NCBI GenBank assembly: GCA_963828195.1
Contig: CAWHDT010000007.1
Location: 1 to 64,000 of the forward strand
Reading direction: 5' to 3'
DNA from: Candidatus Bathyarchaeota archaeon
GTDB lineage: Archaea > Thermoproteota > Bathyarchaeia > Bathyarchaeales > Bathycorpusculaceae
DNA: 64,000 bases
Both the position numbers and the translations under genes were made by a program. Shown piece by piece: positions 1 to 50,995 of this stretch (its first letter is position 1; each line of letters starts with the position of its first letter). The notes under the pieces are model-generated. The model saw only the letters and a list, made by a program, of their open reading frames with translations, was not told the DNA's origin and did not search any database.

Positions 1-14
1 GGAGGAAAGCCTAG

Positions 15-452
15 GTGGCTGTAAATCAAGCCTTAACGGTTTCGGAGTTGCTGCAGGAGAATTGGGGGCTATCAAGTCCCCTGGCTGCTGCAAATATTTT
101 GTGGCCTATAACTCGCATGGATGCGATTGGGGTTACTCAGGGAAAAGGACCCTTGCAAGTAGCTGTCTATAACGCGAGCCCTAGCAAGCAGGTGGATGCG
201 CTTAGTCGCGAATGTTACTTGGTTACTGAAAAACTTGTCGTTGACATAATTGTTGTTAACGCTAGCCAAAGCACAGCCGATTTAGCCACTGCAGAATCCA
301 CTTTGGAAGCATTGCAGGCTGAAGTTACCCGCATCATACACTTACAAGACCCAAACTATGCAGTAACCGGAGAGCCGATTCACAGTAACGCAACTGAAGT
401 AACCCGCGTTATGATCAACATTGACGCCGTTTACTTCAGCATCTCAAGTTAA
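15..452 (+). CDS. Virion tail completion/terminator-like protein
   Basis: 145 aa, GGAGG RBS at 1-5, position upstream of tail genes; function inferred from position. Confidence 0.55.
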   Translation: MAVNQALTVSELLQENWGLSSPLAAANILWPITRMDAIGVTQGKGPLQVAVYNASPSKQVDALSRECYLVTEKLVVDIIVVNASQSTADLATAESTLEALQAEVTRIIHLQDPNYAVTGEPIHSNATEVTRVMINIDAVYFSISS

Positions 453-468
453 TAGGCAGGTGAAGTGA

Positions 469-588
469 ATGGCAGAACTAAAAAGGGCGGCAAACCAGAA
501 ATTTAAGACAAAATTTAGCTCTTGGATTGTGACTTACAAAAACGGTTCTCAGGTTCTTGTAGAGCACAGAGTAACGAAAATAGCTTAG
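469..588 (+). CDS. 39-aa basic micro-ORF (MAELKRAANQKFKTKFSSWIVTYKNGSQVLVEHRVTKIA)
   Basis: GGTGA RBS at 459-463, ATG at 469, TAG at 586-588; below the ORF-track cutoff. Confidence 0.5.
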   Translation: MAELKRAANQKFKTKFSSWIVTYKNGSQVLVEHRVTKIA

Positions 589-592
589 GAGA

Positions 593-618
593 ATGCAGCG
601 GGACTGCATCGTTTTTTT
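593..618 (+). terminator. Hairpin plus T-tract terminator-like element
   Basis: ATGCAG-CGGGA-CTGCAT stem followed by T7, between convergent genes. Confidence 0.45.
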
Positions 619-640
619 CAAGCTACTAAAAAGGAGACCT

Positions 641-1120
641 TTATATTGAATTTTTTAGCTTTGAAGCAAACTCTTCAGCGTGTTTGAGGTCTTCAGCGTT
701 AGGTCTGCCTTTATTCATTCCACCAAACCGACCATAGATGCGATTAGTGTTAAAGCCTTTGCAATTAAACTCATCAACAATAGTGTAGCCTTTAGATTGC
801 AGTTTCTCCCTAAGTGCTGTGTGAAATTTACCTGAAGTTTTCCCAAATAACAGCGAATCAACACCCACAAAACTTGTTGAGAAAATGAATGCATTTTTAT
901 CTGTGACTTGAGGGAGTTTATCAGCCAGTTCAAGCAGACTTTCGTGGTGTTTTTCTCCAAATATTCCTGAGCCGAACCCTACTAAGTCAAACTGTTGAAG
1001 CTCTTCGGGGTTTGTTTGTTGTGGAGTCTTTATTTGTGCATCGAGAACCTTTGCCATAGCTTCAGCTACCTTCTGAGTGTTATTGTGATGGAAAGAGTAA
1101 CAGACTATCAGAGACTTCAT
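641..1120 (-). CDS. Flavodoxin family protein (moron inside the tail module)
   Basis: YSFHHNNTQKVAEAMA FMN loop, LVGFGSGIF, GRPNAEDLKHAEEFA C-terminus. Confidence 0.9.
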   Translation of the reverse strand: MKSLIVCYSFHHNNTQKVAEAMAKVLDAQIKTPQQTNPEELQQFDLVGFGSGIFGEKHHESLLELADKLPQVTDKNAFIFSTSFVGVDSLLFGKTSGKFHTALREKLQSKGYTIVDEFNCKGFNTNRIYGRFGGMNKGRPNAEDLKHAEEFASKLKNSI

Positions 1121-7963: not shown

Positions 7964-8001
7964 TTGCTGCGTACAGCCGGGGCTCCGAATGTACGTGGTG
8001 G
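7964..8001. repeat. Degenerate palindromic B-type site (GTACA-N14-TGTAC)
   Basis: TTGCTGCGTACA GCCGGGGCTCCGAA TGTACGTGGTGG; same spacing as the half-sites at 11000 and 11504. Confidence 0.45.
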
Positions 8002-8061
8002 CATGATCTTGGTTTTTCCTAGTGATTTAATCACGCTATTTGATGGGAGGTGAAATCAAAA

Positions 8062-8322
8062 ATGAAAACTACAAATAAAATTATAGCTGTTCTTGGAGTA
8101 ATCGTTACAGTCTTAGGGATTACGGCTTCTGTTGCAACGGGCATAGGCTACTCAGGTATCGGATTAACAGTTGTTGGCGTTATCTCTATTGTTAAAGGCA
8201 GCGAAGAACTCATAGATGGCAATCTAACTGACGCAGTAACAGACATTGTTAACGGCTTCAATGCAGTCAAGCAGAATGTTCCACAAGCAACACAAGAAGC
8301 AAAAACTGCAACTGAAACTTAA
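8062..8322 (+). CDS. Small two-TM membrane protein (holin-like position)
   Basis: GGAGGTGA RBS, two hydrophobic segments, last gene of the structural module, followed by T-tracts. Confidence 0.6.
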   Translation: MKTTNKIIAVLGVIVTVLGITASVATGIGYSGIGLTVVGVISIVKGSEELIDGNLTDAVTDIVNGFNAVKQNVPQATQEAKTATET

Positions 8323-8548
8323 AGTTTCTTTTGTCTTTTCTTTTTTTTAATAAAGCAGCCTCATAAGTTTAAAAAACGGAGCTGATAGTAAGCTCGTTTT
8401 AAGTCTTTTTTTGACATTTAACTTGTTGTCTTAGCGGAAGCTACTTAACTTCATAGATCAAAAGAATAGATATAATAAGTACATATTAAATCGCGAAATT
8501 CTTTTTGACAGCTGTGATGAGACTAAACGGTAAAATTTTCATAATGAG

Positions 8549-8570
8549 AACCCTTAAATTTGCATAGCAT
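8549..8570 (+). repeat. Motif A, degenerate copy
   Basis: AACCCTTAAATTTGCATAGCAT. Confidence 0.55.
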
Positions 8571-8600
8571 TTTGATGTTAGTGGGTTTTTTTCAGTGGAT

Positions 8601-8894
8601 TTAGTTATTGCCTATAGGGTTACAGAGATTTTTGTTCACTTCACCTTTAGCAAGATTAAAGCCAAGTTTCAAGATTTCGCCAAAGACTACGGCGCCCCAG
8701 TTCCATTGTTTGAGTGGTTTCTCTTCTTCAGTTCTTAGCCAATTTTCCAAAGATTTTTCACCTAGATGAAGTATAGTGTACGCTACGTAATCTGAAGCTT
8801 CTGCTTTGCGACATTTCTCATTAAAGTTAAGTGGTAGCTTGACCAATCTTATCGGAACTTGCATGGGCGTTATTGGAACTATTTTGTACTCCAT
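8601..8894 (-). CDS. Hypothetical protein
   Basis: 97-aa ATG ORF, 22 bp downstream of the wHTH gene. Confidence 0.6.
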   Translation of the reverse strand: MEYKIVPITPMQVPIRLVKLPLNFNEKCRKAEASDYVAYTILHLGEKSLENWLRTEEEKPLKQWNWGAVVFGEILKLGFNLAKGEVNKNLCNPIGNN

Positions 8895-8916
8895 TTTTTT
8901 CCACGTTCATTTTTTT

Positions 8917-9258
8917 CTATAAATCAGTTCGTTGCCTTTGAAATTCTGCACCACATACCAATAATCCACTCATGTGATTTTCAACGTGGAATTTGTATGC
9001 TTGAGCATTTCCAATTTTCCTAGTTGGAATTGCAAATCCCATTTTGATAAGCTTTTCTAAGGCTTCTTTAGTTGTTTTATAGGATAGGTTTGCTGACTCA
9101 GCTAACATGGATATTGTTTGCTCCATGTTTCCTACAATTAGAGCCTGATCAAATAATCTGGCTGTAGGTCCTCCAAATATGCTTGAGAATGGTCCTCTTG
9201 TGGCATACTCTTCTGCATCATTTTTTTGTTCGTTTTGTTCTTTCGTTAATGTTTGCAA
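8917..9258 (-). CDS. Winged helix-turn-helix regulator
   Basis: TISMLAESANLSYKTTKEALEKLIKMG...RKIGNAQAYK; GAGGA RBS. Confidence 0.85.
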   Translation of the reverse strand: MQTLTKEQNEQKNDAEEYATRGPFSSIFGGPTARLFDQALIVGNMEQTISMLAESANLSYKTTKEALEKLIKMGFAIPTRKIGNAQAYKFHVENHMSGLLVCGAEFQRQRTDL

Positions 9259-9406
9259 TTTTTTTCCTCCTATAAGCCTTCTCTAATTACTTTACTACTA
9301 CCTACTATAACACCAGTAGATATAAATTTTACTATAATACAATGAGTTTGTAAAAAAATACAATGTATTCAAAGCTTTAAAACATACCGATTCATAATAG
9401 CTATCC

Positions 9407-9757
9407 ATGCCAGCCAAAAGCCTTTCATCCCTAAAACCAAGAGAGAGAAAATTCGCTGGCTTTATTCTTAATAAATTGTGGACTGATAACTATTGGTGTG
9501 GTGAAGGTAGACGACAACACTTAGGGCATACTTCAAAAACAAATTTGCCCAAAGGGCTCCCTCGCAGTGATGCTGGTGAAGTGCAAGAGGTCGCTGATAA
9601 ACTTATCAAATTGGGCTTTATTTGTAAAGTAAGTGCAACCGGAGATATTCATGTATGTGCTAGTAGATCACCTGAAAAAATAGACGATGGCCTTGTTGTG
9701 GTGAATGAATATAGGGCTTCAGTTGGTCTAGTTCTTTTGGAAAGAGACCAAATATAA
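9407..9757 (+). CDS. Hypothetical wHTH-like protein (GHTSxxNLPKG type)
   Basis: 116-aa ORF divergent from the wHTH gene. Confidence 0.65.
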   Translation: MPAKSLSSLKPRERKFAGFILNKLWTDNYWCGEGRRQHLGHTSKTNLPKGLPRSDAGEVQEVADKLIKLGFICKVSATGDIHVCASRSPEKIDDGLVVVNEYRASVGLVLLERDQI

Positions 9758-10009
9758 ACTTTAGACTACTACCTAATGCAAATTATCGTAAAAGCAACAT
9801 GAGAAATTAATTCTAGAGAAAACTGCATAAAACATTTTATATTTATTTGGATTCGTAGGGTCACTTATTATGCTCTCAGGTATTCCACGCTCTTGGGCGA
9901 CTACAAAGTAAAGTAGCACCCATAGGTATAACATCATTCTTCTTTTTCAATGATGTTTTCATAAATTAGAAGATACTTCCACTACTTTAAGCAACTTTTT
10001 GATGGTCAA

Positions 10010-10037
10010 AAGTCTTAAATCTGCATAGCATAGAAAA
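10010..10037 (+). repeat. Motif A copy
   Basis: AAGTCTTAAATCTGCATAGCATAGAAAA. Confidence 0.9.
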
Positions 10038-10097
10038 TAATCAGTGATTAGATTGATTGATATTTTCAATCACTTTATTGTCCATTGACCTAAACTT

Positions 10098-10937
10098 TTA
10101 GGATAAGGCTGTTTTCAGAAATTCAGCCAATTTAATAGTCTCGATTTCTAAATTGCAATATGGACATACTTTTAATTGTTCTAAACTCGTTTCTCTTTCA
10201 ACCTTTAGATTACCACCGCAGTGTGGGCATCGATACACAGCTACAATCCCTTCTTGTCGCAATTGGCGTAATAAGTCATTTACATCAATGTTCTTGATGA
10301 TTATTTCCTGTTTAATTGTTGGCGTCTTGGAATCAGGAGTGTATTTTCCTTGTTCCCAAGCCCCAATATTGAGAGATATTGGGGCAACGATAAATATTAA
10401 TTGGTTATTTGCAATTTGGATTGGATACATCTGGTTTTTATGTATGAAAACCTTGAGTTCCTTCCAACGAGTGCCAAAAATATCATTCATGCAATTTACA
10501 ACGCCATCAACCAATCTTCGGTCTACAATTGTTTTTCTTAGACCAACTATGGGTCCTCCGTTTGCATTGACTCCGCAATCAAGCGAATCCAAGGTTACTT
10601 GCAGGAAGTTTTGAAAATTGACGTTATTGACGTGCTCGATAAATGAACTTGATGTTATCATAATTATTCTCAATTCGTCGGTTGCATATTCAGTTAATAG
10701 AGGCTCAGGTAGTATAGCAAACGTCATTGGGTTGACCCTTATGTTCCATTTGCGTCCAGTCCACTCCGACATATATTGGATAACTTCTTTGTAGCGGGGA
10801 GCAGTCTTTATTGATACTTCGATAGAATTTTGTTGCTCTTCAACATGGCTTGTTGTTTGTTCTTTCTTTTTATTTGTTCCAAAGAGGGGTATCTCAAAGC
10901 ACCAGCAGTTTCCATTCACAAATGTGCGGATGTCCAA
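10098..10937 (-). CDS. Hypothetical protein with C-terminal Zn ribbon; true start probably downstream
   Basis: CPHCGG...CPYC motif. Confidence 0.7.
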   Translation of the reverse strand: MDIRTFVNGNCWCFEIPLFGTNKKKEQTTSHVEEQQNSIEVSIKTAPRYKEVIQYMSEWTGRKWNIRVNPMTFAILPEPLLTEYATDELRIIMITSSSFIEHVNNVNFQNFLQVTLDSLDCGVNANGGPIVGLRKTIVDRRLVDGVVNCMNDIFGTRWKELKVFIHKNQMYPIQIANNQLIFIVAPISLNIGAWEQGKYTPDSKTPTIKQEIIIKNIDVNDLLRQLRQEGIVAVYRCPHCGGNLKVERETSLEQLKVCPYCNLEIETIKLAEFLKTALS

Positions 10938-10999
10938 ATTAATTTATTGGTTCGTTTAAGTATTGTTGGGTTAAAATAGTTGGTCATGAACACGTTTGC

Positions 11000-11026
11000 T
11001 CAAGGGGTTAAAATGTACTCAGCAGC
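11000..11026 (+). repeat. B-type core plus right arm
   Basis: TCAAGGGGTTAAAA TGTACTCAGCAGC. Confidence 0.6.
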
Positions 11027-11044
11027 TAAGTATTCACAATCAAT

Positions 11045-11071
11045 AAGTCTTAAATCTGAAAAGCGTAGAAA
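11045..11071 (+). repeat. Motif A copy
   Basis: AAGTCTTAAATCTGAAAAGCGTAGAAA. Confidence 0.9.
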
Positions 11072-11115
11072 CAGCATTGAGTATAAAGAAGCACAATAGC
11101 CTTGGTAAAGGTAAC

Positions 11116-11409
11116 ATGCCAATTGAGCCTTTAAGATGTAAAGTATGCGGTGGAATGTTAGACGCTAACTTAAAGTGTCCCTACTGTGGAGCGCTTCACG
11201 TTAGAGTAAACAATATTATTATGGTAATGAAGATATGCCCTAAACACTTAATCGCTTATTCCGCTAACCTCTGTCCTAAATGCAGTCAAGAAAAAAAAGC
11301 AGAGTCGGAAAGAAAAGAAAAAGAAAAGCTTGAGTTTGAACACTGGAAACAACGCCATTCAGCTTTCCTAACTAAAGCAGGACTCGTTAAAGAGGAAACA
11401 TCAAAATGA
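11116..11409 (+). CDS. Zn-finger protein
   Basis: CKVCGG...CPYCG and CPKH...CPKC motifs; a hydrophobic 28-codon ORF at 11406-11492 overlaps its stop. Confidence 0.65.
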   Translation: MPIEPLRCKVCGGMLDANLKCPYCGALHVRVNNIIMVMKICPKHLIAYSANLCPKCSQEKKAESERKEKEKLEFEHWKQRHSAFLTKAGLVKEETSK

Positions 11410-11503
11410 CACTATCGAGCGCTGTTCTTATTCTTGTTGCCATTCCGATTGTAATATATGCAAAGACTCCTTATGAACTTAAAAGGCATTAAACGGTTAG
11501 GGC

Positions 11504-11530
11504 TATTACCGAGTACATTCAAGGGTTAAG
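11504..11530 (+). repeat. Motif B (left arm plus core)
   Basis: TATTACCGAGTACATTCAAGGGTTAAG; 25/27 identical to 29134-29160. Confidence 0.9.
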
Positions 11531-11535
11531 AATTT

Positions 11536-11580
11536 CGCTATTTAGAGAAGATAAGTCTTAAATCTGAATAGCGTAGAAAA
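11536..11580 (+). repeat. Motif A copy with palindromic arms
   Basis: CGCTATTTAGA-N16-TCTGAATAGCG (10/11 inverted match), containing AAGTCTTAAATCTG. Confidence 0.9.
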
Positions 11581-11598
11581 TACCACATTAGATAAGAA

Positions 11599-11835
11599 AT
11601 GAATTGGCATAGATGGTCACGACAAACTTGCAGAAATTGCAAACATTTCCCTCTAAACATGGATAGTGTTTGTTATGTAGATGAAATGGGCAGAAAAATT
11701 TTCACTCAATGTGTCTATGTGAAATATAATGTCTATCCAAATACACGGGCATGTGAACAATTTACAGCAATGAAGGGTAAAAGTAGAGAAGAACAATTCA
11801 GTAAACTATTAACTTCATTGATACCTAAAAAATAG
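11599..11835 (+). CDS. Small Cys-rich hypothetical protein
   Basis: CRNCKHF...C...ACEQF; 18 bp after motif A. Confidence 0.65.
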   Translation: MNWHRWSRQTCRNCKHFPLNMDSVCYVDEMGRKIFTQCVYVKYNVYPNTRACEQFTAMKGKSREEQFSKLLTSLIPKK

Positions 11836-11863
11836 CCCTACCTTTTGTTTTTTAAAGCATGAT

Positions 11864-11889
11864 AAGTCTTAAATCTGCATAGCATATAA
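11864..11889 (+). repeat. Motif A copy
   Basis: AAGTCTTAAATCTGCATAGCATATAA. Confidence 0.9.
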
Positions 11890-11918
11890 TAGAAAAATTG
11901 TGAGTGAGGGAATCAAAA

Positions 11919-12311
11919 ATGAGAGAAAAATCAACTACCGACTCTAAAAAACCAAAAGATAACGGTGACACTGCACCTTCGCATGACGAAATCAGATACT
12001 CAATCCTAACGATACTTTACAAAAAGGCAGAGAAAACTCCTTCCGACGCCACAGTAAGCAGAGAACAACTTGGAGAAATTTTAGGTGTAGAAGACAATAA
12101 AATTGACTTTAATTTAAAATATCTTGAACAAAAAAAACTCATAGACCGACCACAATTGTTTCAAGGTTCATATAAGTTGTCAGCAAGAATAACTGCCGAT
12201 GGAATAGACATTATAGAACATAAAGAAGAAAACAAGAAGCAATTTCCATTTTTAAGTGCGACAATCCCTATACAAATTCAAAATAAATTTTGTCTTATTA
12301 ACATCGGCTAA
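11919..12311 (+). CDS. Winged-helix domain protein
   Basis: ILTILY...LGEILG...NLKYLEQKKLI...ARITADGIDIIE. Confidence 0.75.
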   Translation: MREKSTTDSKKPKDNGDTAPSHDEIRYSILTILYKKAEKTPSDATVSREQLGEILGVEDNKIDFNLKYLEQKKLIDRPQLFQGSYKLSARITADGIDIIEHKEENKKQFPFLSATIPIQIQNKFCLINIG

Positions 12312-36701: not shown

Positions 36702-39107
36702 TTAGGGCTTTTTGGTCAGCACCTGGTTTTCTTTGTCGAAAGCGAATTCGCTGAATCTCTGCGTGTAGTAGATCTTCAGGTATTCGCCTGCAAACTTTGC
36801 TTCAAACGGAAGATCTTTAGGTGAAAGAGCCTTTTTCTGTTTTAATTGTTCTTCAATGGCTGCTTCCGCCGTTGGATAGTTAAGCAGAAACTCTTTCCAC
36901 TCATTGTAAGCCGCTAATGTCTTCACTGCTTCATCAACGTAAGTCAGGTAGAGGGGCAAGTTTTCCATTATTTGGTTAATCTTGTAGTTAGATGGGTTTG
37001 AGAGTGTTTCTGCCGCCTTCTTTAAGCGTTCACGCAGGGTGCTGTTTTTCTCCCACAGATAATCTTTTGTCGGTAGCAAACGTTCAATCGAGTCTTCCTC
37101 GCTGATCAATTCAGAATACAGCATGGAGAGCACGTCTTTGGAGATGTTGAGGAAAGATTGGATGTCATCGTTTAATTCGACAACATCCACGATGTTTAAC
37201 TGGTCCTTCTCAATCTTGTTCTCAGCTGTCAACTTCATTGACTCTGCTTTTTTGGAGTAATCCAGTACTTTCGGCAGGTTCTCGCCGAAAATCGCGGGCA
37301 AAACCTCATTTTCACTGTTTAAGTCCGCAATCGGCGTTAAGGAGGTTTTAAGGTACTTCATCGAATCCAAAATTTCAGCGCCGTACTGTCTCTTCCAATT
37401 ATTCAAAGAGCTGTACAGTGCCTCAATGGCAATCCAAGGCGACTCTTTTTGCTCAAGCTTCTGCAGCGTGAACTCTATTGCTCTGCTTTTCTCTGGAAGA
37501 TCTGGGTCATACAGTGGTCGAATGATTCCATAAATTGGCTCGGCAACTTGAACAACGTCTTTGGCAAGAACTCTTCCGCCGTCCAAGATTTGTTTGATGG
37601 CGTCTATTCTTGCATCAAGAGCCATCTCTTTTTGAAAATCAGGGTTCACCGTTGATTTCACTTGTAAGCCGCTGCCTTTTAGTTTTCCAACCCAGTCAGA
37701 AAATTCACAGTTAACAAAAATCTGGTATTCCGACAGTATCGCGTTTAGTTCCGATTCTAAACCGTCAATGTTTTTGCTTAACTTGCCCAGCTCCTCCAGT
37801 TTCTCATTTAAATCTGCTGGTTCGAAGTAGTGCATCGCCGATTTTTTCAATGTGTCTTCAAGAGAGTCTTTGATAACCAGCATTTTTCCTTCCGGAGCAC
37901 TTACGTCAACTGGAATGTTTTGTTTAACGGTGTCTAGTTGTTCCTCAAAAGTCTTCAGTCGATCCATGAGGGCTTGAGTTTTCTCCACTATCTCTGGGTC
38001 TGTCGCTATTTGCTTAGGAGTGTACTCGATGAAGGCAACTGGTAGGGTAAAGAGAAGCGTCGCTAAAGTACCGAACAGTATTGTGCCGCCGCCGACGTCA
38101 GCGGTGTAAGCCAAAGGCGCTTGGAGAGCGCTTAAAAGAATAAAGAACAAGGCGGCTGCAATGGTGGCGGTGAAGCAGGGAAAAAGCTTGTTGCCTTCGC
38201 CAATCAGGCTTTCTTTAACGAAAAGTCTTGTAAAGAAAACAAGTGCAATAGCAAGCCCTGCAACTATAACGATGAACATGATTAAGCCGGGGGCAGAGTC
38301 AAGATACTGCGATAACGCCGCGCTGAGGGTGCGCCCGTTGAAATTTGGAGTCCAAGTGAGTTGACCCGCAATTGAATAGACAACTTGCGACGTGTCGTAG
38401 AGTCGAAACTGACTGATTGTTGTATTTAGATTAGTGAAAATTAAGTTTAAGGCGGTGAAAAGCGGTGGGCTTGAACCGGGCGTGTTCCACCAGTCTGATC
38501 TCAGGATTGGGGCTACAGTGTAGGTGTAGTACTGGAGAATCTGAAGTGGCACAGAGATTAATGTGTAATAAATGATTGTTAGGGAGACGTATCGTTTGAA
38601 GTATACTGCTGAAGCCAAAATAATTGGGATAGCTAAAAAATATGTTGACCCTGAGAAAAGCATGGTAACAGCTAATAAGCCGAAATCAATTGCGAGAGCA
38701 CTTCTGTAACGGTGAAAAATAATGGGTAACCCAACAAACAGCGCCATCCACACAACTACTACAGCAAGACGATCTGTTGTGCTTCCAAGAAACGAAATAA
38801 AATAGAGTTCGGCAAGATGATACAGCAGACCTATCCCAACGATGGCGCCGCCGACAGGCATTCCGAACAGTGGATTTTGAAAAGTGAGAAATGCAACTAA
38901 AACGGCGAGGATAATCGGCAGGGGTTGAGGAAAAAGAGGCAGATAAGACATCGCCAACGCCATTGCGACAAGTGTTACTAGAAAAGTAAGTATTTTCAGC
39001 GGTTGAGATTCAAGGCTGCGGTCCTGTGCCTCCTTATCTTTTCGCTTCTGGCTCGCTGTTTTGAACCAAGATATCAAGCCTTTTTTAGCGGAGGAGGGCT
39101 TCGTCAA
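36702..39107 (-). CDS. Polytopic membrane protein with a long helical/coiled-coil C-terminal half
   Basis: About 9-10 hydrophobic segments in the first 360 aa, then a charged helical region. Confidence 0.85.
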   Translation of the reverse strand: MTKPSSAKKGLISWFKTASQKRKDKEAQDRSLESQPLKILTFLVTLVAMALAMSYLPLFPQPLPIILAVLVAFLTFQNPLFGMPVGGAIVGIGLLYHLAELYFISFLGSTTDRLAVVVVWMALFVGLPIIFHRYRSALAIDFGLLAVTMLFSGSTYFLAIPIILASAVYFKRYVSLTIIYYTLISVPLQILQYYTYTVAPILRSDWWNTPGSSPPLFTALNLIFTNLNTTISQFRLYDTSQVVYSIAGQLTWTPNFNGRTLSAALSQYLDSAPGLIMFIVIVAGLAIALVFFTRLFVKESLIGEGNKLFPCFTATIAAALFFILLSALQAPLAYTADVGGGTILFGTLATLLFTLPVAFIEYTPKQIATDPEIVEKTQALMDRLKTFEEQLDTVKQNIPVDVSAPEGKMLVIKDSLEDTLKKSAMHYFEPADLNEKLEELGKLSKNIDGLESELNAILSEYQIFVNCEFSDWVGKLKGSGLQVKSTVNPDFQKEMALDARIDAIKQILDGGRVLAKDVVQVAEPIYGIIRPLYDPDLPEKSRAIEFTLQKLEQKESPWIAIEALYSSLNNWKRQYGAEILDSMKYLKTSLTPIADLNSENEVLPAIFGENLPKVLDYSKKAESMKLTAENKIEKDQLNIVDVVELNDDIQSFLNISKDVLSMLYSELISEEDSIERLLPTKDYLWEKNSTLRERLKKAAETLSNPSNYKINQIMENLPLYLTYVDEAVKTLAAYNEWKEFLLNYPTAEAAIEEQLKQKKALSPKDLPFEAKFAGEYLKIYYTQRFSEFAFDKENQVLTKKP

Positions 39108-39152
39108 GCAATCAACCTAAAGCCTTATTTTAACTAACTCTTCTTAAAGGTT

Positions 39153-40313
39153 ATGCAGGTACCTCGGATGAGTAATGAAAAAATCGATTTCGACGTTTTA
39201 GAAAGCATCAAGAAGCATACAGAAACCTTAAAACCGCTACTGCCTAAGCAAGCATTGGTTTGCATTGGCGAATACCCCATTAAGATATTGTTAAAAAAAC
39301 CCTACGTAAACGACACTAACCTAATGTCGCCGATTCTCCTTGGGAAATCCAGCGAGGAGATGTTTAAATGGATTCCAAAAGGCTTTGACCCGCTTCTTGT
39401 TTTAGGATTCGAAGACGCAAAAATTGATACTCACTTTTGGTATAATGTATTGCCATTTATTTCTCAAGACGAAACGTTGATCGAAGGTATAAAGAAAAAA
39501 CCCATTGAAAAACTGCAGGGCGCAATAATGGTTGCGTCCGTTTGGGATGGAATCGGCAGCGCTTCACTGCCAGCGCTTATATCGAAATTTAAGGCTTCAA
39601 ACATAAATTCGCTGTCCTTAGCTATATTGCCGTCAAAAATACAGACTACAGACGCATACTTCAACGCTCTTGCATCGTTGGGGATGTGTGCGTCCAGTGA
39701 TGCAGCGGTTGTAGTGCTTTTGGAGAGAGACTTGCTTGAAAACTATGAAGGAGTCGATAGAAACGGCGTCCTCATAAAAGGTAGTGCGGTTGCCAATTAC
39801 CTGATAAACCTGTTCATAACTAAGGAAACACTTGTCCAAGAAATATCAGAGTTTTCCAGGACATTTAACGTCAAAATGTACTCTGTTTTAGTGGCGACAG
39901 GTGCAAGCATAAAAATTTACGGTTCCTTAGAAAACATGTTAAACACAATGTTGCTGAAGCCTTTTTTAACTTTTGATTTATCAAGCGCTTCACTGCTTTA
40001 CGTTCTTCTTCGCATGCCCAAAAGTCTCAAAGATAAGGTTCCGAGAGAAAAAATCGAGTTAGCAACAGCAAGCTGGTTTAAAGAAAAAGCTAACCTTAAA
40101 TCCATATACATAACTGAACCCGTCTACGTTGAAGACCCAAGCGACCGAATCGACATAATCTTATTCATCGGCGGCTTCGACACTGAAAAAATGGTCACTG
40201 AATTAAATAATAAGGTCAAAAACATGAAAAATCGAGCTGTACAAAAAGGATTCTTAAAAGAGGAAGATTGGCAAGCATTTATGAAAAATTTAGAAGAGCA
40301 GAAGGAGCAATAA
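39153..40313 (+). CDS. Degenerate FtsZ/tubulin-fold protein (putative pseudo-GTPase)
   Basis: ASVWDGIGSASLP in place of GGGTG(S/T)G; SLAILP, VVLLERDLL, PFLTFDLSSA, RIDIILFIGG align with FtsZ elements. Confidence 0.7.
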   Translation: MQVPRMSNEKIDFDVLESIKKHTETLKPLLPKQALVCIGEYPIKILLKKPYVNDTNLMSPILLGKSSEEMFKWIPKGFDPLLVLGFEDAKIDTHFWYNVLPFISQDETLIEGIKKKPIEKLQGAIMVASVWDGIGSASLPALISKFKASNINSLSLAILPSKIQTTDAYFNALASLGMCASSDAAVVVLLERDLLENYEGVDRNGVLIKGSAVANYLINLFITKETLVQEISEFSRTFNVKMYSVLVATGASIKIYGSLENMLNTMLLKPFLTFDLSSASLLYVLLRMPKSLKDKVPREKIELATASWFKEKANLKSIYITEPVYVEDPSDRIDIILFIGGFDTEKMVTELNNKVKNMKNRAVQKGFLKEEDWQAFMKNLEEQKEQ

Positions 40314-40327
40314 AATCCTTCTAAAGT

Positions 40328-42988
40328 TTACTTTTTGTTTTGGCTGCCGTTGACGCGTTCGTTGCCGTTATTTATTTCCTTGATGATCTGCGTTGCGTGG
40401 ACTCCGTGTTCAAGTAGGTATGATCTGGATAGGTGTCTTTCGAAATCACTAGATTTGTTGTAGAGCAACGCCATTTCGTCGAAGGCTTCCATGTCTTCGG
40501 GTTTTCCTCTGCCGCCAAGAACAAGCACTCTTGTTTCCCAGGGATCGCGTGATTCAATGACTCGCACTGTGATTGTTCTTGACACTTCGCTGGTTACGTA
40601 GCCTGCTAATGCAACATAAACTTCCTGAGACATTTCTTCAGTCCACAATTTTGGAGGTGATTGCACGGTTACCCAAAGGTAATCGGTTTTGTAAACTGGT
40701 TTATAGCCCATAACGCTTGGTGTTTTGAAGGTTCTGATTACGCTTTTCATGTAGTCTTTAAAGTGTTCCATGTCAAGTATGTCTTTGAATATGACATCTT
40801 TTGTGAGGCTTTCTTCTTGTTCAGTAAGTATTTTGAAGATTATTTTTAGTTGCTCGCTTTCGGTGAGGTCAGCTGACTTTACGTAGTATTTCTTAGGCGC
40901 AGCGATTTCTGCTATCTTTTCTTTGTATTCGCTGTGCAAATCCACAATCTTATTGAGACGTTTCCGATAGTCAGATACAAGTTCAAATCTTTTTGCTAAT
41001 TTCTCGTAGAGTTTAATTGTACTGTCAACTTTGGCGAGGCTGTCAAGCGCGTAAGATTCTTCTTCTTCTATCCTCTTCAGGTCGCGGTCAAGCTCCATTA
41101 GTTGTTCTCGGGCATAACGTTTTGAACTGAAGGTTTTTCTCATTTGCCGCTCCATTTTTGATTTGTCGAATTCTTTGCGTTTCTTTGTCTCTTGCACCCT
41201 CATGACTTCGTTGTCGAAGTTACCTCTTTTCTTCATACGGTTTGACATTATTTCGTTTATGTATGTTACGTGTTCATCGATCATTCTTGACTCGTCAGAT
41301 GGAGTTCTAAGAATCATCTGAATGACAAGGTAGATTGTTGCAAGCTCCGCTTGTATGTCTTTTAAGTCTTCTAGTTCAGCTTGCGATTCTGGAAGAGCTT
41401 CATAATATCTTATTAATGCTTCAGTGATGTACCTGGTTTCGTCATAGAATTTCAAGATGTTCAAGGATTTTTCTGCAAGCTCGGCAAGATTTACTAAATC
41501 CTCCAAAATCTTCTTTTGCCTCAAAGTGAAGACTTGCGAGCTGGGAATCAACTGCTTTAGCCGATCTAAAATAACTGCTTTTTTCTCAGAGAATTCTAAA
41601 TGCGTTTTTGTCAGGGTAGTGAGTAACGTTTCTAGATTGTCCAGTTTTCTTGAGCCTTCTTTACGTAAGGTCAAATTGATTATGGCGTCCTCGATTGGCC
41701 CTGTTTTGGACATCAACTTTATTGTGGAAAGGAACTTCATGATTTCGCTTAACCAGTTTTTAACCTGTAACTCAACGCCTTTGACATGTAATTCTCTGTC
41801 ATCTTCAAGCCGCGGATTACTGTTAATGATTGTCTTAAGTTTTTCATCGAACTGCTCTTCATTGTAAGTGCCTGTTTTTATAAGATAATTCTTGAACAGG
41901 TCGCGTGTTACTTCAGAATCCACTTTTATAATGTCGTTAACTTCGTCAAGAACATCGAGTTTTTCTTTTCTAAGTTCTTGGAGAAGTTCAAGTCCCTCAA
42001 AATTCAGTTTGTACGCTGATAGATATTCTTCCACTGGGTAAACTACCTTAACCATGCCTAAGGTGTGCGCTGAATTGTTGGTAAGTCCAACTTCTGTACC
42101 GATTCCGCCTAGGAGATCTGCCAAGTCAAAATCCATTAAGGTGTAGAGCATGTCCACAACCATATCGTCGAGTTCTTTTCGGGCACTAACGATGTTGCCT
42201 ACTTTTGAGAAAGCAGGTAAAAGCGGCAAGTAAATTAGTGCGTTTAAAGGATTTCTATAGTAGTCCCCGTAGTTTTGTATGACAAAGTCATTGTAATCCT
42301 TATTCAACAGCAAGGTAAGCTCGTTCATTGATACGAATGCGGAGCATCCTTTTGCAGGCGGATCATCCCCGCCGCATGGAGTCACAACGAAGGCTATGAT
42401 CGGTACCCCTGAACCTAAAACTTTTCGCAGGTGCCGGGCAAAATCAAAGAAAATGCCGCTTCCTGTCCCCCCGCCTAATCCGTAAACCACAACCACCGTC
42501 GGCGTAATTATTGAGGATAAAGCCTGCTCTTTGAACGAGTTTATGCAGCTTCTAACGATTCCAAGTTGATAATAGTTTAAGGCATAGATCGCTTTGGCTA
42601 AGGCTCTTCTTCTTCCAGCCCCGCCTGCCATTGGCGGAATAGCCATGGTTGATTGGAGCCATGGACTGAAGTTTTCAAGTTTTGCCCCTTCGCCTACGAG
42701 GTACTCATTGTATTTTTGGTTGATGAAATCAAACATTGCTTCAGCAGTTGGAAACTTTATCGACTGGGCAATCAGCCGCAATCTTTCGCTAGGGATGCCT
42801 GCTTTCACCATTTGCTTCTGTATTTGTTCATTGGTTTCTTGTAAGTCTCTGATTTCGGGGTCAGCTATGTCTATGGCTAAAAGGGAAAGCCTGGTAAGAT
42901 CGTTCCCCATGAGTTCCATGGTTTTTTTGCTTTTCAGGAAAGCTTCTACGATATTAGTTCCAGCTGAACCAAGTCCAATGAGTTGCAC
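40328..42988 (-). CDS. Tubulin/FtsZ-like GTPase with a long coiled-coil insertion (Tubulin_2/FtsZ-like type)
   Basis: IGLGSAG, GGAG, GLGGGTGSG signature, DFDLADL T7-like loop. Confidence 0.9.
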   Translation of the reverse strand: MQLIGLGSAGTNIVEAFLKSKKTMELMGNDLTRLSLLAIDIADPEIRDLQETNEQIQKQMVKAGIPSERLRLIAQSIKFPTAEAMFDFINQKYNEYLVGEGAKLENFSPWLQSTMAIPPMAGGAGRRRALAKAIYALNYYQLGIVRSCINSFKEQALSSIITPTVVVVYGLGGGTGSGIFFDFARHLRKVLGSGVPIIAFVVTPCGGDDPPAKGCSAFVSMNELTLLLNKDYNDFVIQNYGDYYRNPLNALIYLPLLPAFSKVGNIVSARKELDDMVVDMLYTLMDFDLADLLGGIGTEVGLTNNSAHTLGMVKVVYPVEEYLSAYKLNFEGLELLQELRKEKLDVLDEVNDIIKVDSEVTRDLFKNYLIKTGTYNEEQFDEKLKTIINSNPRLEDDRELHVKGVELQVKNWLSEIMKFLSTIKLMSKTGPIEDAIINLTLRKEGSRKLDNLETLLTTLTKTHLEFSEKKAVILDRLKQLIPSSQVFTLRQKKILEDLVNLAELAEKSLNILKFYDETRYITEALIRYYEALPESQAELEDLKDIQAELATIYLVIQMILRTPSDESRMIDEHVTYINEIMSNRMKKRGNFDNEVMRVQETKKRKEFDKSKMERQMRKTFSSKRYAREQLMELDRDLKRIEEEESYALDSLAKVDSTIKLYEKLAKRFELVSDYRKRLNKIVDLHSEYKEKIAEIAAPKKYYVKSADLTESEQLKIIFKILTEQEESLTKDVIFKDILDMEHFKDYMKSVIRTFKTPSVMGYKPVYKTDYLWVTVQSPPKLWTEEMSQEVYVALAGYVTSEVSRTITVRVIESRDPWETRVLVLGGRGKPEDMEAFDEMALLYNKSSDFERHLSRSYLLEHGVHATQIIKEINNGNERVNGSQNKK

Positions 42989-43015
42989 ACTGTTTTGGTA
43001 AATTCTCGTAGGTTG

Positions 43016-43987
43016 TCACATCCCAACTAATCTTTTCAATCTGTCCTTAACTGACTCAAGATTCGACGACATTGTCCTATCGATCTTTTTAGCCCGCATC
43101 GTTAAGCCTTCCAAGTCTTTGATTTGGTCTTCAACGACGAGTTGGAAGTAGCTTATTTTGCCGCGTATTCTCATGAACAGAAACGCGAAAACAACTGCGA
43201 CAGCCGCTAAGACACCTGCTACAGGCAGGAACAAGGCTTGAGTTGCTGAACTTGGTGGCGCATTAGAGGGATTCAAATTATTGAGCATAGCTGTGGCGTC
43301 GGCAACATCTCCCGCGTCAGCAACGGCCAAAGATTCGTTAAGAAAAGTCTTGTAGAGTTGAGTGTATCCTGAATTAACTCCTGAAGATACAAGATGGTTT
43401 AACTCCGAATTCTGTTGGCTGTACAACGTCAGAAAAGCAGCCATTTGCGAACCAACTGACCATACAGAGATTTGAGCAAGCGGCAGACCACCATTTGGAC
43501 CATACAAGGTGACCAAATCGACTGGCGTTTGTTGTAGACCAGAGGATGGCGTTGGAACGACACCGATAACTGTCATAGTAAATGTTCCCTGTGTCCAAGT
43601 GAACCGGGCTGGATTTGCACTTGCACTAAAGTCGCTGCCTAAATTGTAGCTGCTTTGATTTGTGAGTTGCCAGAATTGTCCTTGCAAAAGGGATTGCAAG
43701 CTAGTTGAGAGTGAAAGATCACCAGACCCGCCAGTGAAAACGTTGACTGTGAAAGTTACTTCAAGGCTTTCTCCTGGGGACGGCGAGGAAATATTCTCAA
43801 CAAGGTTTGTTGTAGAATCATAGCTTTCGAGAAGTTTTCCCGTGTTATAGTCATTGATTTGGTAGCTAGTTATCCAGCCACCGCTTGCTGGAGCGGCTTG
43901 CGCTTTGACTGTTGAAACCGCTATTGAAGAAATAATAATTGTTGTTAATAATAGAACAAGGCTTAGGGCTAATATTTTCTTATTCAA
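43016..43987 (-). CDS. Secreted protein with C-terminal TM and short cytoplasmic coiled coil
   Basis: Signal peptide ending VKAQA, beta domain, TM, charged helical tail. Confidence 0.85.
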   Translation of the reverse strand: MNKKILALSLVLLLTTIIISSIAVSTVKAQAAPASGGWITSYQINDYNTGKLLESYDSTTNLVENISSPSPGESLEVTFTVNVFTGGSGDLSLSTSLQSLLQGQFWQLTNQSSYNLGSDFSASANPARFTWTQGTFTMTVIGVVPTPSSGLQQTPVDLVTLYGPNGGLPLAQISVWSVGSQMAAFLTLYSQQNSELNHLVSSGVNSGYTQLYKTFLNESLAVADAGDVADATAMLNNLNPSNAPPSSATQALFLPVAGVLAAVAVVFAFLFMRIRGKISYFQLVVEDQIKDLEGLTMRAKKIDRTMSSNLESVKDRLKRLVGM

Positions 43988-44190
43988 GTTTATGCACCAA
44001 GATTTGTTTTGCAATGGTTTCTAGTGCATGATGCATATAACACTTGCGCTAAACCGCCTAAACTGAGGATACCATAGCTAAACGGGTCATTTAGCTGCTG
44101 ACTGGTTGTTGCTTAAGCTGAAAATCGGTCGCTTCTATGGCAAAGAATAAAGATTAACCTGGCATTACGGTTGGTGTAAGAGGGTTAATT

Positions 44191-49680: not shown

Positions 49681-50550
49681 CTAAGGTTGTTCGGATGGCG
49701 GCTGCTGTGATGACGGTTGTGGTGGCATTGTTTTCTTCCTTGCTGCTGCCTGTGCTTGTTGGGCGTTAGTTAAGTCTTTGAATCCGTAGGTTCCGACTGG
49801 AGGCCAGCCTGCTTCAGGCATGACTGCGGGCACTAACATGATTGTGTTTGTTTGTGATTGCTGGCCCAACTCGTAGAGTATGTTCATCCATCTGAGTCTC
49901 AGTCCGTCTGGGCTTGCCTCGTAGGCTTTTGCTGCTTCAATCATTTTTTGTGACGCTTCAAACTCTGCTGTGGCTAACGTAACTCTCGCAATGCGTTCCC
50001 GTTCAGCTTGGGCTTGGCGGCTCATGGCGTCTTGCAGGTTGCTTGGTATTATGACATCGCGGACTTCCACGGAGGTAACTTTGATTCCCCATGCCTCAGT
50101 TTTTTCATCGATGATTTCGCGCAGTTTAGCCCCGACTTTTTCTCGTTCCGCGAGCAACTCGTTGAGGCTTTGTTTACCGATGACTTCCCGCAGGGTTGTT
50201 TGAGATGCCAATTGTGTCGCTTGGTAGTAGTTTTCAACTTGCAGCACTGCCTTCTCTAAATCCACGGGCCTCATGTATAAAACTGAATCAACGTTTACTG
50301 GAACGTTATCTTTAGTTAACGTTGACTCAGTGCGGAATTGTATAGTATCTAGTCTTGTGGAGATTGTCAGGGGCGCCCTGTCAATTAAAGGAATAAGATA
50401 GACGATGCCGGGACCCTTCAAGCCAACATAGCGTCCGAGCCTTAAAACTGGCATCCGCTGCCACTCTTTCAGAACACGAATACCGCTTAACAGGAAAAGT
50501 ACAACAACTATAGCTATAAATCCAATTACACCCTCAACAACTGCCGACAT
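49681..50550 (-). CDS. SPFH/stomatin family protein
   Basis: TKDNV.V.VD, QTTLREVIG, WGIKVTSVE, QAQAERER. Confidence 0.95.
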   Translation of the reverse strand: MSAVVEGVIGFIAIVVVLFLLSGIRVLKEWQRMPVLRLGRYVGLKGPGIVYLIPLIDRAPLTISTRLDTIQFRTESTLTKDNVPVNVDSVLYMRPVDLEKAVLQVENYYQATQLASQTTLREVIGKQSLNELLAEREKVGAKLREIIDEKTEAWGIKVTSVEVRDVIIPSNLQDAMSRQAQAERERIARVTLATAEFEASQKMIEAAKAYEASPDGLRLRWMNILYELGQQSQTNTIMLVPAVMPEAGWPPVGTYGFKDLTNAQQAQAAARKKTMPPQPSSQQPPSEQP

Positions 50551-50590
50551 TTAATTCACACCTTCAATCATTATTCTGCGCTCTTAAGAG

Positions 50591-50995
50591 TTAAGCTTTT
50601 TGCTGCGCTGGTTTAACCACAAGATACACGCCTTCCATGCTTACAACTTCCACCGCTTCACCAGCAGCTATTGCCCCATCTTTGGCGGTTGCTTCCCAGA
50701 ACTCGCCCATAACGCGGACTTCACCTTTAGGGTTAAGGTCACTTGTCGCTACGCCTCTGGCTCCAATCAAGGCTTCTTTGCCTGTTTTTACCCGTTTAAA
50801 CTGGGCTTTGAATCCAGCGGCGAATATGAGGATGATGACTGCTGCGACGACAAACAGCGTTGCCGCAAGAGCTACGTCGTCTGATGCGCCCAGCCCCATG
50901 AAGCTTACTCCGTAGACTGCTAAGACAACGAGGAAGGCTCCAACGGCTACTAAGACTCCGACGAGTAAACCCAGCGAAACATGCATCCAAATCAC
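50591..50995 (-). CDS. NfeD family protein
   Basis: TGKEALIG, G.VRVMGEFWEA; upstream of SPFH. Confidence 0.9.
   Translation of the reverse strand: MIWMHVSLGLLVGVLVAVGAFLVVLAVYGVSFMGLGASDDVALAATLFVVAAVIILIFAAGFKAQFKRVKTGKEALIGARGVATSDLNPKGEVRVMGEFWEATAKDGAIAAGEAVEVVSMEGVYLVVKPAQQKA

Follow-up and report, generated by a model that had tools for sequence, protein, structure and literature searches.

Organization of the locus

We analysed a stretch of 64,000 nucleotides (hereafter the window; positions 1 to 64,000 of contig CAWHDT010000007.1, assembly GCA_963828195.1) from a Bathyarchaeia genome of 2.83 Mb (9 contigs, 96% complete), in which four closely packed genes encode two tubulin-like proteins and two predicted membrane proteins. 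We refer to their products, by type and length in amino acids (aa), as TM801, a polytopic membrane protein; pseudo381, a degenerate tubulin-superfamily protein; tub886, a predicted GTPase of the FtsZl1/Tubulin_2 type; and surf332, a putative type-I surface protein (Table 1). Among the names on close relatives of its proteins are Candidatus Bathyarchaeia, Bathycorpusculum and ‘miscellaneous Crenarchaeota group-6’.

A preliminary description of this DNA, made from the letters alone, had proposed the same four open reading frames (ORFs), tightly packed and separated by 45, 14 and 27 bp. The coordinates confirm the ORFs and the gaps exactly, but the genes do not form one co-directional operon, as the second lies on the plus strand. 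The pseudo381 and TM801 genes are divergent, those for pseudo381 and tub886 convergent, and the stop codon of surf332 precedes the tub886 start by 27 bp. Because pseudo381 is encoded on the opposite strand, we count about three transcription units (surf332-tub886, pseudo381 and TM801) and not a single operon. All four genes are under purifying selection, with ratios of nonsynonymous to synonymous substitution rates (dN/dS) of 0.07-0.24 against the nearest usable ortholog, which sets them far beyond chance ORFs.

The start of pseudo381 is most likely the second ATG of its ORF, which would widen the first gap to 60 bp. This start is favoured because in 3 of 27 orthologous stretches the second codon of the five-codon extension is a stop and because the database entries are mostly 381 aa long. 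In the resulting divergent spacer, each of two A/T-rich boxes lies ~20-27 nt from one of the two start codons. Both boxes are kept in 12 loci of the same family or order and differ in three loci of a more distant family. We infer from this arrangement a pair of back-to-back archaeal promoters that would yield leaderless or short-leader mRNAs.

Table 1 Features of the locus and of related loci. Positions refer to the window unless another locus or contig is named.
Feature	Position	Strand	Description
TM801	36702-39107	-	ORF, 801 aa; predicted polytopic membrane protein
Divergent spacer TM801/pseudo381	39108-39167	.	Two A/T-rich boxes
pseudo381	39168-40313 (ORF opens 39153, 386 aa)	+	Degenerate tubulin-superfamily protein, 381 aa from the favoured start
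tub886	40328-42988	-	ORF, 886 aa; FtsZl1/Tubulin_2-type predicted GTPase, full length
tub886 residues 1-316	42041-42988	-	Nucleotide-binding domain, H7, T7-like motif, H8, strand S7
tub886 helical insertion (~319-770)	40679-42034	-	From the model; alignment gap against solved chains; lower conservation
tub886 residues 771-886	40331-40678	-	Strands and helices completing the tubulin C-terminal domain; two C-terminal helices; disordered end
surf332	43016-44014	-	ORF, 332 aa; putative type-I surface protein
surf332 residues 282-332	43019-43171	-	Cytoplasmic tail, predicted amphipathic helix
Fifth soluble gene	Loci L136-L144, L147-L151, L154, L155		Present in these loci outside the genus
841-aa protein	L175 5794-8319 = G000 (the window's genome) contig C3, ~181.8-184.3 kb	-	N-terminal part fused to a different polytopic membrane domain

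An FtsZl1-type protein with a predicted split tubulin fold

The largest protein, tub886, matches the Pfam family Tubulin_2 (PF13809) over residues 3-204 with 59.7 bits (cut-off 27; 61.4 bits in the genome search). Its match to Tubulin (PF00091) reaches 31.9 bits, just below the cut-off of 33, and FtsZ_C was not matched in the Pfam search. Tubulin_2 is the Pfam counterpart of FtsZl1, a family described by Makarova & Koonin in 2010 (PMC2875224; PMC9871819). Judged by its profile matches, tub886 is a member of Tubulin_2/FtsZl1 and not an FtsZ. The preliminary description had taken the protein for a tubulin-like GTPase and had proposed for the locus a trans-envelope cytoskeletal or remodelling machine distinct from FtsZ and CetZ. 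The Tubulin_2 score and the modelled fold (see below) support the membership; the sub-threshold PF00091 score, the lack of FtsZ_C and the position of the FtsZ proteins of the genus outside its clade in a quick tree support the distinction from FtsZ. The distinction from CetZ is a proposal, and CetZ is the closest solved fold.

An alignment of 40 orthologs, reaching down to 25% identity, revealed invariant glycines in the T1 loop (G5, G7 and G10) and an invariant T4 loop (G170, G172-174, G176, S177 and G178). Two acidic residues, D288 and D291, are invariant as well, and so are W772, W782 and E860 in the C-terminal part. Conservation within the set is highest for tub886, whose dN/dS of 0.05-0.07 is similar to that of the housekeeping flank.

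A HMMER search with residues 1-345 against 1.84 billion cluster representatives yielded 119 matches at E <= 0.001, 23 of them at E <= 1e-30. Among these, ~14 are orthologs of ~860-915 aa at 35-60% identity, followed by proteins of ~450-590 aa at ~30% and then by the classical FtsZl1 proteins of 700-1150 aa. Public names of relatives include Saccharolobus, Geothermarchaeales and ‘Bathyarchaeota B24’; the Saccharolobus entry is an 882-aa protein that is 42% identical over the 345-residue head. These names fit the 2010 remark that a diverged Sulfolobus protein, SSO1376, is likely the first of a crenarchaeal FtsZl1 subfamily (PMC2875224). In a quick maximum-likelihood tree (53 rows, midpoint-rooted, with supports from the Shimodaira-Hasegawa-like approximate likelihood-ratio test (SH-aLRT) only and the careful search unfinished), the ~880-aa group formed a clade with a support of 91. 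Its sister is the short group of ~450-590 aa, joined at 95, while the long FtsZl1 proteins and the FtsZ proteins of the genus fell outside the clade that holds tub886.

To describe the fold, we used an AlphaFold2 model built from the 40-row ortholog alignment (mean predicted local distance difference test (pLDDT) 88, predicted template-modelling score (pTM) 0.76). Foldseek matches to this model were led by CetZ1 (top, E 8.8e-6), CetZ2, TubZ and FtsZ, with E values of 9e-6 to 7e-5 and a probability of 1.00. Alignment with VIA-align placed 323 of 330 residues of CetZ1 (4b46) on the model range 1..848 (Z 27.0, root-mean-square deviation (rmsd) 3.6 Å). Tubulins followed with Z 23-24 (350-356 residues aligned, range 1..873), and Aquifex FtsZ (2r6r) scored Z 23.2. 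According to the model, tub886 has the complete two-domain tubulin/FtsZ fold. Because only ~320-355 residues align although the aligned range covers the whole chain, the middle of the protein is best read as an insertion. In the model, residues ~319-770 (~450 residues) are all-helical and sit within the C-terminal domain, between strand S7 (307-316) and the strands at 771-828. Conservation is lower there, at 0.42-0.47 for residues 346-700 vs 0.56-0.71 for residues 1-345 and 701-870.

The model further shows the element order of FtsZ, H7-T7-H8: a core helix (266-285), a DFD/LAD motif (286-291) and a short helix (289-296). From the motif, its position in the model and general knowledge of FtsZ, we take D288 and D291 to be the counterparts of the catalytic T7 acidic residues. 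In FtsZ polymers, these residues complete the active site of the neighbouring subunit.

A degenerate partner of the tubulin superfamily

As a single sequence, pseudo381 matches Pfam Tubulin weakly (19 bits, cut-off 33). We therefore rely on a profile of 28 orthologs that are 24-82% identical. Searched against the PDB, this profile matched AtubB2 (E 5e-7), CetZ (3zid, 3e-5), CetZ2 (4b45, 2e-4) and BtubB (6e-3), followed by OdinTubulin and gamma-tubulins. The matches are almost all to the tubulin superfamily, and all lie over the T4-H5-S6 region. A direct hhalign comparison with the tub886 family gave a probability of 80% (E 1.4e-5, 77 columns). Against the N-terminal 320 residues of tub886, the probability was 73% over 191 columns, with FDLS..A of pseudo381 placed opposite FDLAD at the end. 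The C-terminal part and the insertion of tub886 gave no hhalign match. Against the FtsZ alignment of the genus, which is of very low diversity, the probability was 2.4%.

In the T1 loop of pseudo381, G34 alone is invariant, and in T4 (consensus WDGVGSA) only G128 and P135; its T7-like motif has lost the second acidic residue. We call the protein degenerate because the glycines of the T1 and T4 GTP loops are not conserved. By its profile matches, pseudo381 is a tubulin-superfamily homolog, and a tubulin fold over its full length appears plausible. The earlier label of a degenerate FtsZ-fold protein thus holds for the superfamily, by the AtubB2 match, and for the loops, while the fold over the whole length is a prediction. 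The dN/dS of 0.10-0.15 marks a maintained gene and not a decaying copy. A complex prediction from the alignments of tub886 residues 1-345 and pseudo381 scored 0.02 against a mark of 0.32, which speaks neither for nor against binding. In two loci (L016 6428-7822 and L017 6677-8083), the pseudo381 orthologs carry Pro/Glu/Lys-rich C-terminal extensions of 80-100 residues, absent in the window.

Two predicted membrane proteins

TM801 has a basic N-terminus, eight hydropathy peaks between residues 39 and 360, with possibly more in 161-273, and a charged, acidic tail of 441 residues. This agrees with the preliminary reading of a polytopic protein with a long tail, whose helicity is a prediction. The gene has a dN/dS of 0.12 and is conserved beside the tub886 gene across loci.

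For surf332, we predict an N-terminal signal or anchor, an ectodomain of ~220 residues, a Pro/Ser linker, a transmembrane segment (261-279) and a cytoplasmic tail of 52 residues; the start codon is uncertain by ~9 codons. The signal or anchor, the membrane segment and the amphipathic helix predicted for the tail match the surface protein with a cytoplasmic segment that had been proposed. In 25 orthologs, the tail is the best-conserved part, with a mean identity of 0.63 vs 0.28-0.35 for the fast-evolving ectodomain, and the overall dN/dS (0.24-0.27) is the highest of the four. Because conservation of the tail over the ectodomain is expected if the tail meets a conserved cytoplasmic partner, we propose the tail as a candidate docking site for such partners. 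In every locus where it was found, surf332 lies directly upstream of the tub886 gene.

Neither membrane protein belongs to a Pfam, NCBIfam or PADLOC family. The protein Atlas returned only hypothetical clusters of Bathyarchaeota for them, and profile searches against the PDB gave coiled-coil noise or nothing, with no significant relative.

Conservation of the module across genomes

The grouping of these genes into one locus is borne out by synteny, the comparison that the preliminary description had suggested: the same four genes occur in the same arrangement across Bathyarchaeia, and of the 81 genomes that contain at least one of the tubulin-like genes, 70 contain both. Within the genus, all four genes, their order, strands and flanks are kept in 11 of 13 loci, and the other two end at contig ends. 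Elsewhere in the class, in other genera and families, 18 of 20 loci keep the arrangement, with different flanks and with tub886 identities down to 50%. A sample of 401 Bathyarchaeia genomes contained strong matches to tub886 in 78 and to pseudo381 in 73, with tub886 alone in eight and pseudo381 alone in three. These single-gene exceptions include five in two variant lineages, several at contig ends and one genome whose candidates were partly scored. Wherever both genes lie on one contig in this sample, their coordinates are adjacent.

In L145, the surf, tub and TM genes lie on one strand and are followed by a gene for a 346-aa zinc-ribbon protein. The most divergent homolog of the class (L146 8008-10890, plus strand) is a 960-aa protein with a C-terminal zinc-ribbon extension, which stands alone beside an Orc1/Cdc6-like gene without the membrane partners. 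In the congener G001 (98% complete), the same flanking genes lie 272 bp apart and the block is absent. Because this gap holds no remnant of the block, insertion and deletion are indistinguishable here. Apparent broken copies in four congeners were considered as decay and dismissed: two occur in assemblies in which neighbouring genes are split too, and two at contig ends.

Outside the class, a search of 401 genomes of the phylum at E <= 1e-30 found matches in two families only (four of eight genomes in one, one genome in the other). All four loci fetched from these families show a colinear, overlapping five-gene operon for a surface protein (311-315 aa), a tubulin-like protein (873-883 aa), a polytopic membrane protein (806-821 aa) and two soluble proteins (~320-330 and ~234-245 aa). 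The ~320-330-aa protein weakly matches the pseudo381 profile in two of the four. A fifth gene for a soluble protein of ~300-312 aa also occurs in 16 of the 20 class loci from outside the genus (Table 1), directly after TM801 in 13 and before the surf gene in three. The window's genus lacks it, as do L152 and L153. In the window's genome, the only homolog of this fifth gene forms the N-terminal ~390 residues of an 841-aa protein encoded elsewhere. Overall, the module is gained and lost, inherited and rearranged as a unit.

Orthologs of the module also appear in metagenome-assembled genomes labelled Dehalococcoidia, Limnocylindrales and Sulfotelmatobacter (P0245, P0111/P0213; L055, L079), through either mis-binning or transfer to bacteria. 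In the window itself, the flanks are housekeeping genes, among them those for citrate synthase, succinate dehydrogenase subunits, a phosphoribosyltransferase and a GHMP kinase. At 49681-50995 (minus strand), 6 kb from the module, an SPFH/Band 7 gene stands beside an NfeD-like gene, a classic membrane-scaffold pair. The region 8001-12000 has a G+C content of 0.355-0.359 vs 0.41-0.53 elsewhere and few long ORFs, and may be foreign or non-coding.

Relation to FtsZ and cell division

In the window's genome, PF00091 matches the tub886 and pseudo381 genes only. Canonical FtsZ was found in 12 of 61 genomes of the genus, as ORFs of 331-369 aa with the GGGTGTG signature and an NLDYAD T7 loop, and 10 of these 12 also carry the module. 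Among 24 other congeners, a protein query found tub886 in 15 and not in nine. A profile search of 40 congeners gave no match in 13 and a weak FtsZ-type match only in three more. The congeners without the module include one-contig genomes, and many have neither FtsZ nor the module. Four Snf7/ESCRT-III matches, two of them above the cut-off, were found in the window's genome.

We considered the module as a replacement for FtsZ and rejected the idea, given that most FtsZ-bearing congeners have both and many genomes neither. The module is most likely not a cell-division apparatus, because many congeners lack both it and FtsZ, because FtsZ and the module coexist and because ESCRT-III is present.

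Comparison with known systems

The FtsZl1 family itself and the idea that it takes part in membrane remodelling have been known since 2010, the latter proposed from membrane-rich gene neighbourhoods (PMC2875224). The head of tub886 (1-316), its helical region and its conserved, mixed C-terminal part match the architecture given there, the GGGTGSG signature is intact, and the neighbours are likewise lineage-specific and membrane-rich. Other features differ. Neither the four proteins nor the 17 flanking ORFs examined contain a vWA, P-loop GTPase, OmpA-like or Ser/Thr kinase domain, a neighbourhood that we regard as typical and not strict because the 2010 paper calls many neighbours lineage-specific. 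Here, the partners comprise a degenerate tubulin-superfamily paralog together with two proteins that match no known family. In the 2010 description (PMC2875224), T6-H7-T7 and a tubulin-like C-terminal domain were not identified in FtsZl1, whereas the tub886 model contains H7 followed by a T7-like motif, and its C-terminal domain is complete but interrupted by the insertion. The quick tree, moreover, separates the clade of ~880-aa proteins from those of 700-1150 aa. Full-text searches found no paper on this cassette, on the degenerate partner, on the split fold or on any FtsZl1 experiment, although the supplementary neighbourhood tables of 2010 (families A1-A2) may list some of the neighbours.

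In structure, the CetZ proteins (4b46, 4b45 and 3zid) come closest to the tub886 model (Z 26.3-27.0, rmsd 3.1-3.6, 306-323 residues). In sequence, 4b46 is also the best PDB profile match of the tub886 family (E 4.4e-6), over the T4 region only. A non-essential role outside division is plausible for both. CetZ proteins, at ~330-400 aa, lack the 450-residue insertion, and to our knowledge no conserved membrane-protein cassette accompanies them. FtsZ with FtsA, ZipA or SepF offers a further parallel, as a cytoplasmic tubulin-family polymer held at the membrane through short conserved peptide contacts; here the surf332 tail would be the tether. This peptide would sit on the membrane protein and not on the polymer, however, the module is dispensable, and the FtsZ of the genus is a separate protein of ~330-370 aa.

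The two-subunit tubulins, namely alpha/beta-tubulin, BtubA/B and AtubA/B (PMC13394414), resemble the locus in having two tubulin genes together, one with full and one with altered catalytic motifs, and the Asgard AtubB2 is the best PDB profile match of pseudo381. Their subunits both bind GTP and are of similar size (PMC13394414), whereas pseudo381 lacks the glycine-rich loops and is 500 residues shorter than tub886, and any heterodimer of the two is hypothetical.

Proposed function and alternative explanations

We give about an even chance to the reading that this accessory module, found in Bathyarchaeia and in related form in a few other Thermoproteota, specifies a tubulin-type GTPase or polymer machine attached to the membrane. 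The module is probably a membrane-attached cytoskeletal device. In such a device, tub886 would bind GTP and assemble head to tail, with the T7 loop of one subunit completing the active site of the next, as suggested by the intact T1, T4 and T7 motifs and the complete fold. The degeneracy of its paralog suggests that pseudo381 might serve as a non-hydrolysing subunit, one that caps or nucleates the assembly or alternates with tub886. The helical arm and the C-terminal parts of tub886 would tie the assembly to the tails of TM801 and surf332; the conserved surf332 tail and the two membrane topologies point to such anchoring and surface coupling. The GTP-driven assembly in the cytoplasm could then position, cluster or move the surface protein, or reshape the envelope locally. 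A more specific form, which we hold to be rather unlikely, is a cytoskeleton-to-surface coupler, in which the split-fold tubulin, with the arm as lever or spacer, and the pseudo-tubulin would build a polar heteropolymer that grips both tails.

Several points weigh against a membrane-attached device of this kind. In FtsZ and tubulin, longitudinal contacts are formed through the domain that here carries the insertion, and an insertion of this length might block canonical polymerisation. The PDB profile match of pseudo381 spans ~100 residues only, and its single-sequence model (pLDDT 42) is unusable. That the TM801 tail is helical and cytoplasmic is suggested by its composition and by an even number of hydropathy peaks, a count that is uncertain at 161-273. 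With three transcription units, co-expression of the four genes is an assumption. Many congeners do without the module, whose role may hence be conditional and difficult to observe. The 2010 paper noted that FtsZl1 may not form filaments (PMC2875224), and the full-text literature searched holds no interaction, GTPase activity, polymer or localisation for any FtsZl1 protein.

The main rival, which we judge unlikely, dispenses with polymers: tub886, as a dimer or in small oligomers, would act as a mechanochemical GTPase in the style of dynamin or atlastin and swing its arm according to the nucleotide state, with pseudo381 as regulator and the membrane proteins as substrates or anchors for fusion, fission or vesicles. 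Pairs of an active and a degenerate GTPase are a common regulatory design, and the position of the insertion as well as the membrane partners within the module suit this explanation. The doubt about filaments in the 2010 paper (PMC2875224) points the same way. It fits poorly with the retention of a complete tubulin fold and of an invariant T7-like acidic pair. In the superfamily, this pair acts in trans across the polymer interface.

A CetZ-like cytoskeleton for shape or division, with the module as the main tubulin-family cytoskeleton of the organism, appears distinctly unlikely. The scarcity of canonical FtsZ in the genus, the lack of further PF00091 matches in the window's genome and the rank of CetZ1, CetZ2 and CetZ as best structural matches would favour it, but nine of 24 congeners gave no match and 16 of 40 none or a weak FtsZ-type one, including complete one-contig genomes without FtsZ. 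The module and FtsZ are also not complementary in their distribution, and ESCRT-III homologs are present. A conditional role in shape, such as CetZ has, may still apply. We consider a conflict, defence or surface-sensing system very unlikely. Its appeal lies in the patchy occurrence within the genus, with gain and loss as a block, and in the fastest-evolving part being the surf332 ectodomain, which would detect viruses or adjacent cells and set off a cytoplasmic GTPase response; surf332 also has the highest dN/dS. All values are nevertheless well below 1, and throughout the genus loci the block keeps a single chromosomal position among housekeeping genes, not one in a variable island. No PADLOC family was found for the four proteins at E <= 0.01 (the sole match, LmuB, reached 11 bits and E 0.029 on the TM801 tail), and Pfam and NCBIfam revealed no nuclease, protease or other effector domain.

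Significance

Within the tubulin superfamily, no branch is more divergent than FtsZl1/Tubulin_2, and full-text searches found no biochemical or structural study of it. The locus described here is a compact, well-conserved version of FtsZl1 with a clear parts list. The view of 2010, a ‘coiled coil + unrelated C-terminal domain’, would give way to that of an entire tubulin fold interrupted by a large insertion, according to a confident model. The practical gain is a short list of candidate contacts, namely the tail peptide, the arm and the pseudo-subunit. As many Bathyarchaeia genomes have neither FtsZ nor the module, the latter provides a natural presence/absence experiment.

Furthermore, the pairing of an intact and a degenerate tubulin-superfamily protein bears on the origin of unequal two-subunit tubulins. 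The hosts are abundant, uncultured archaea of soils and sediments whose cell biology is almost unknown. If the membrane-attached device does couple a cytoskeleton to the surface, internal GTP turnover would move or pattern an external protein, and the module, based on tubulin, would be the prokaryotic equivalent of adhesion-cytoskeleton links and ancestral to several lineages of Thermoproteota.

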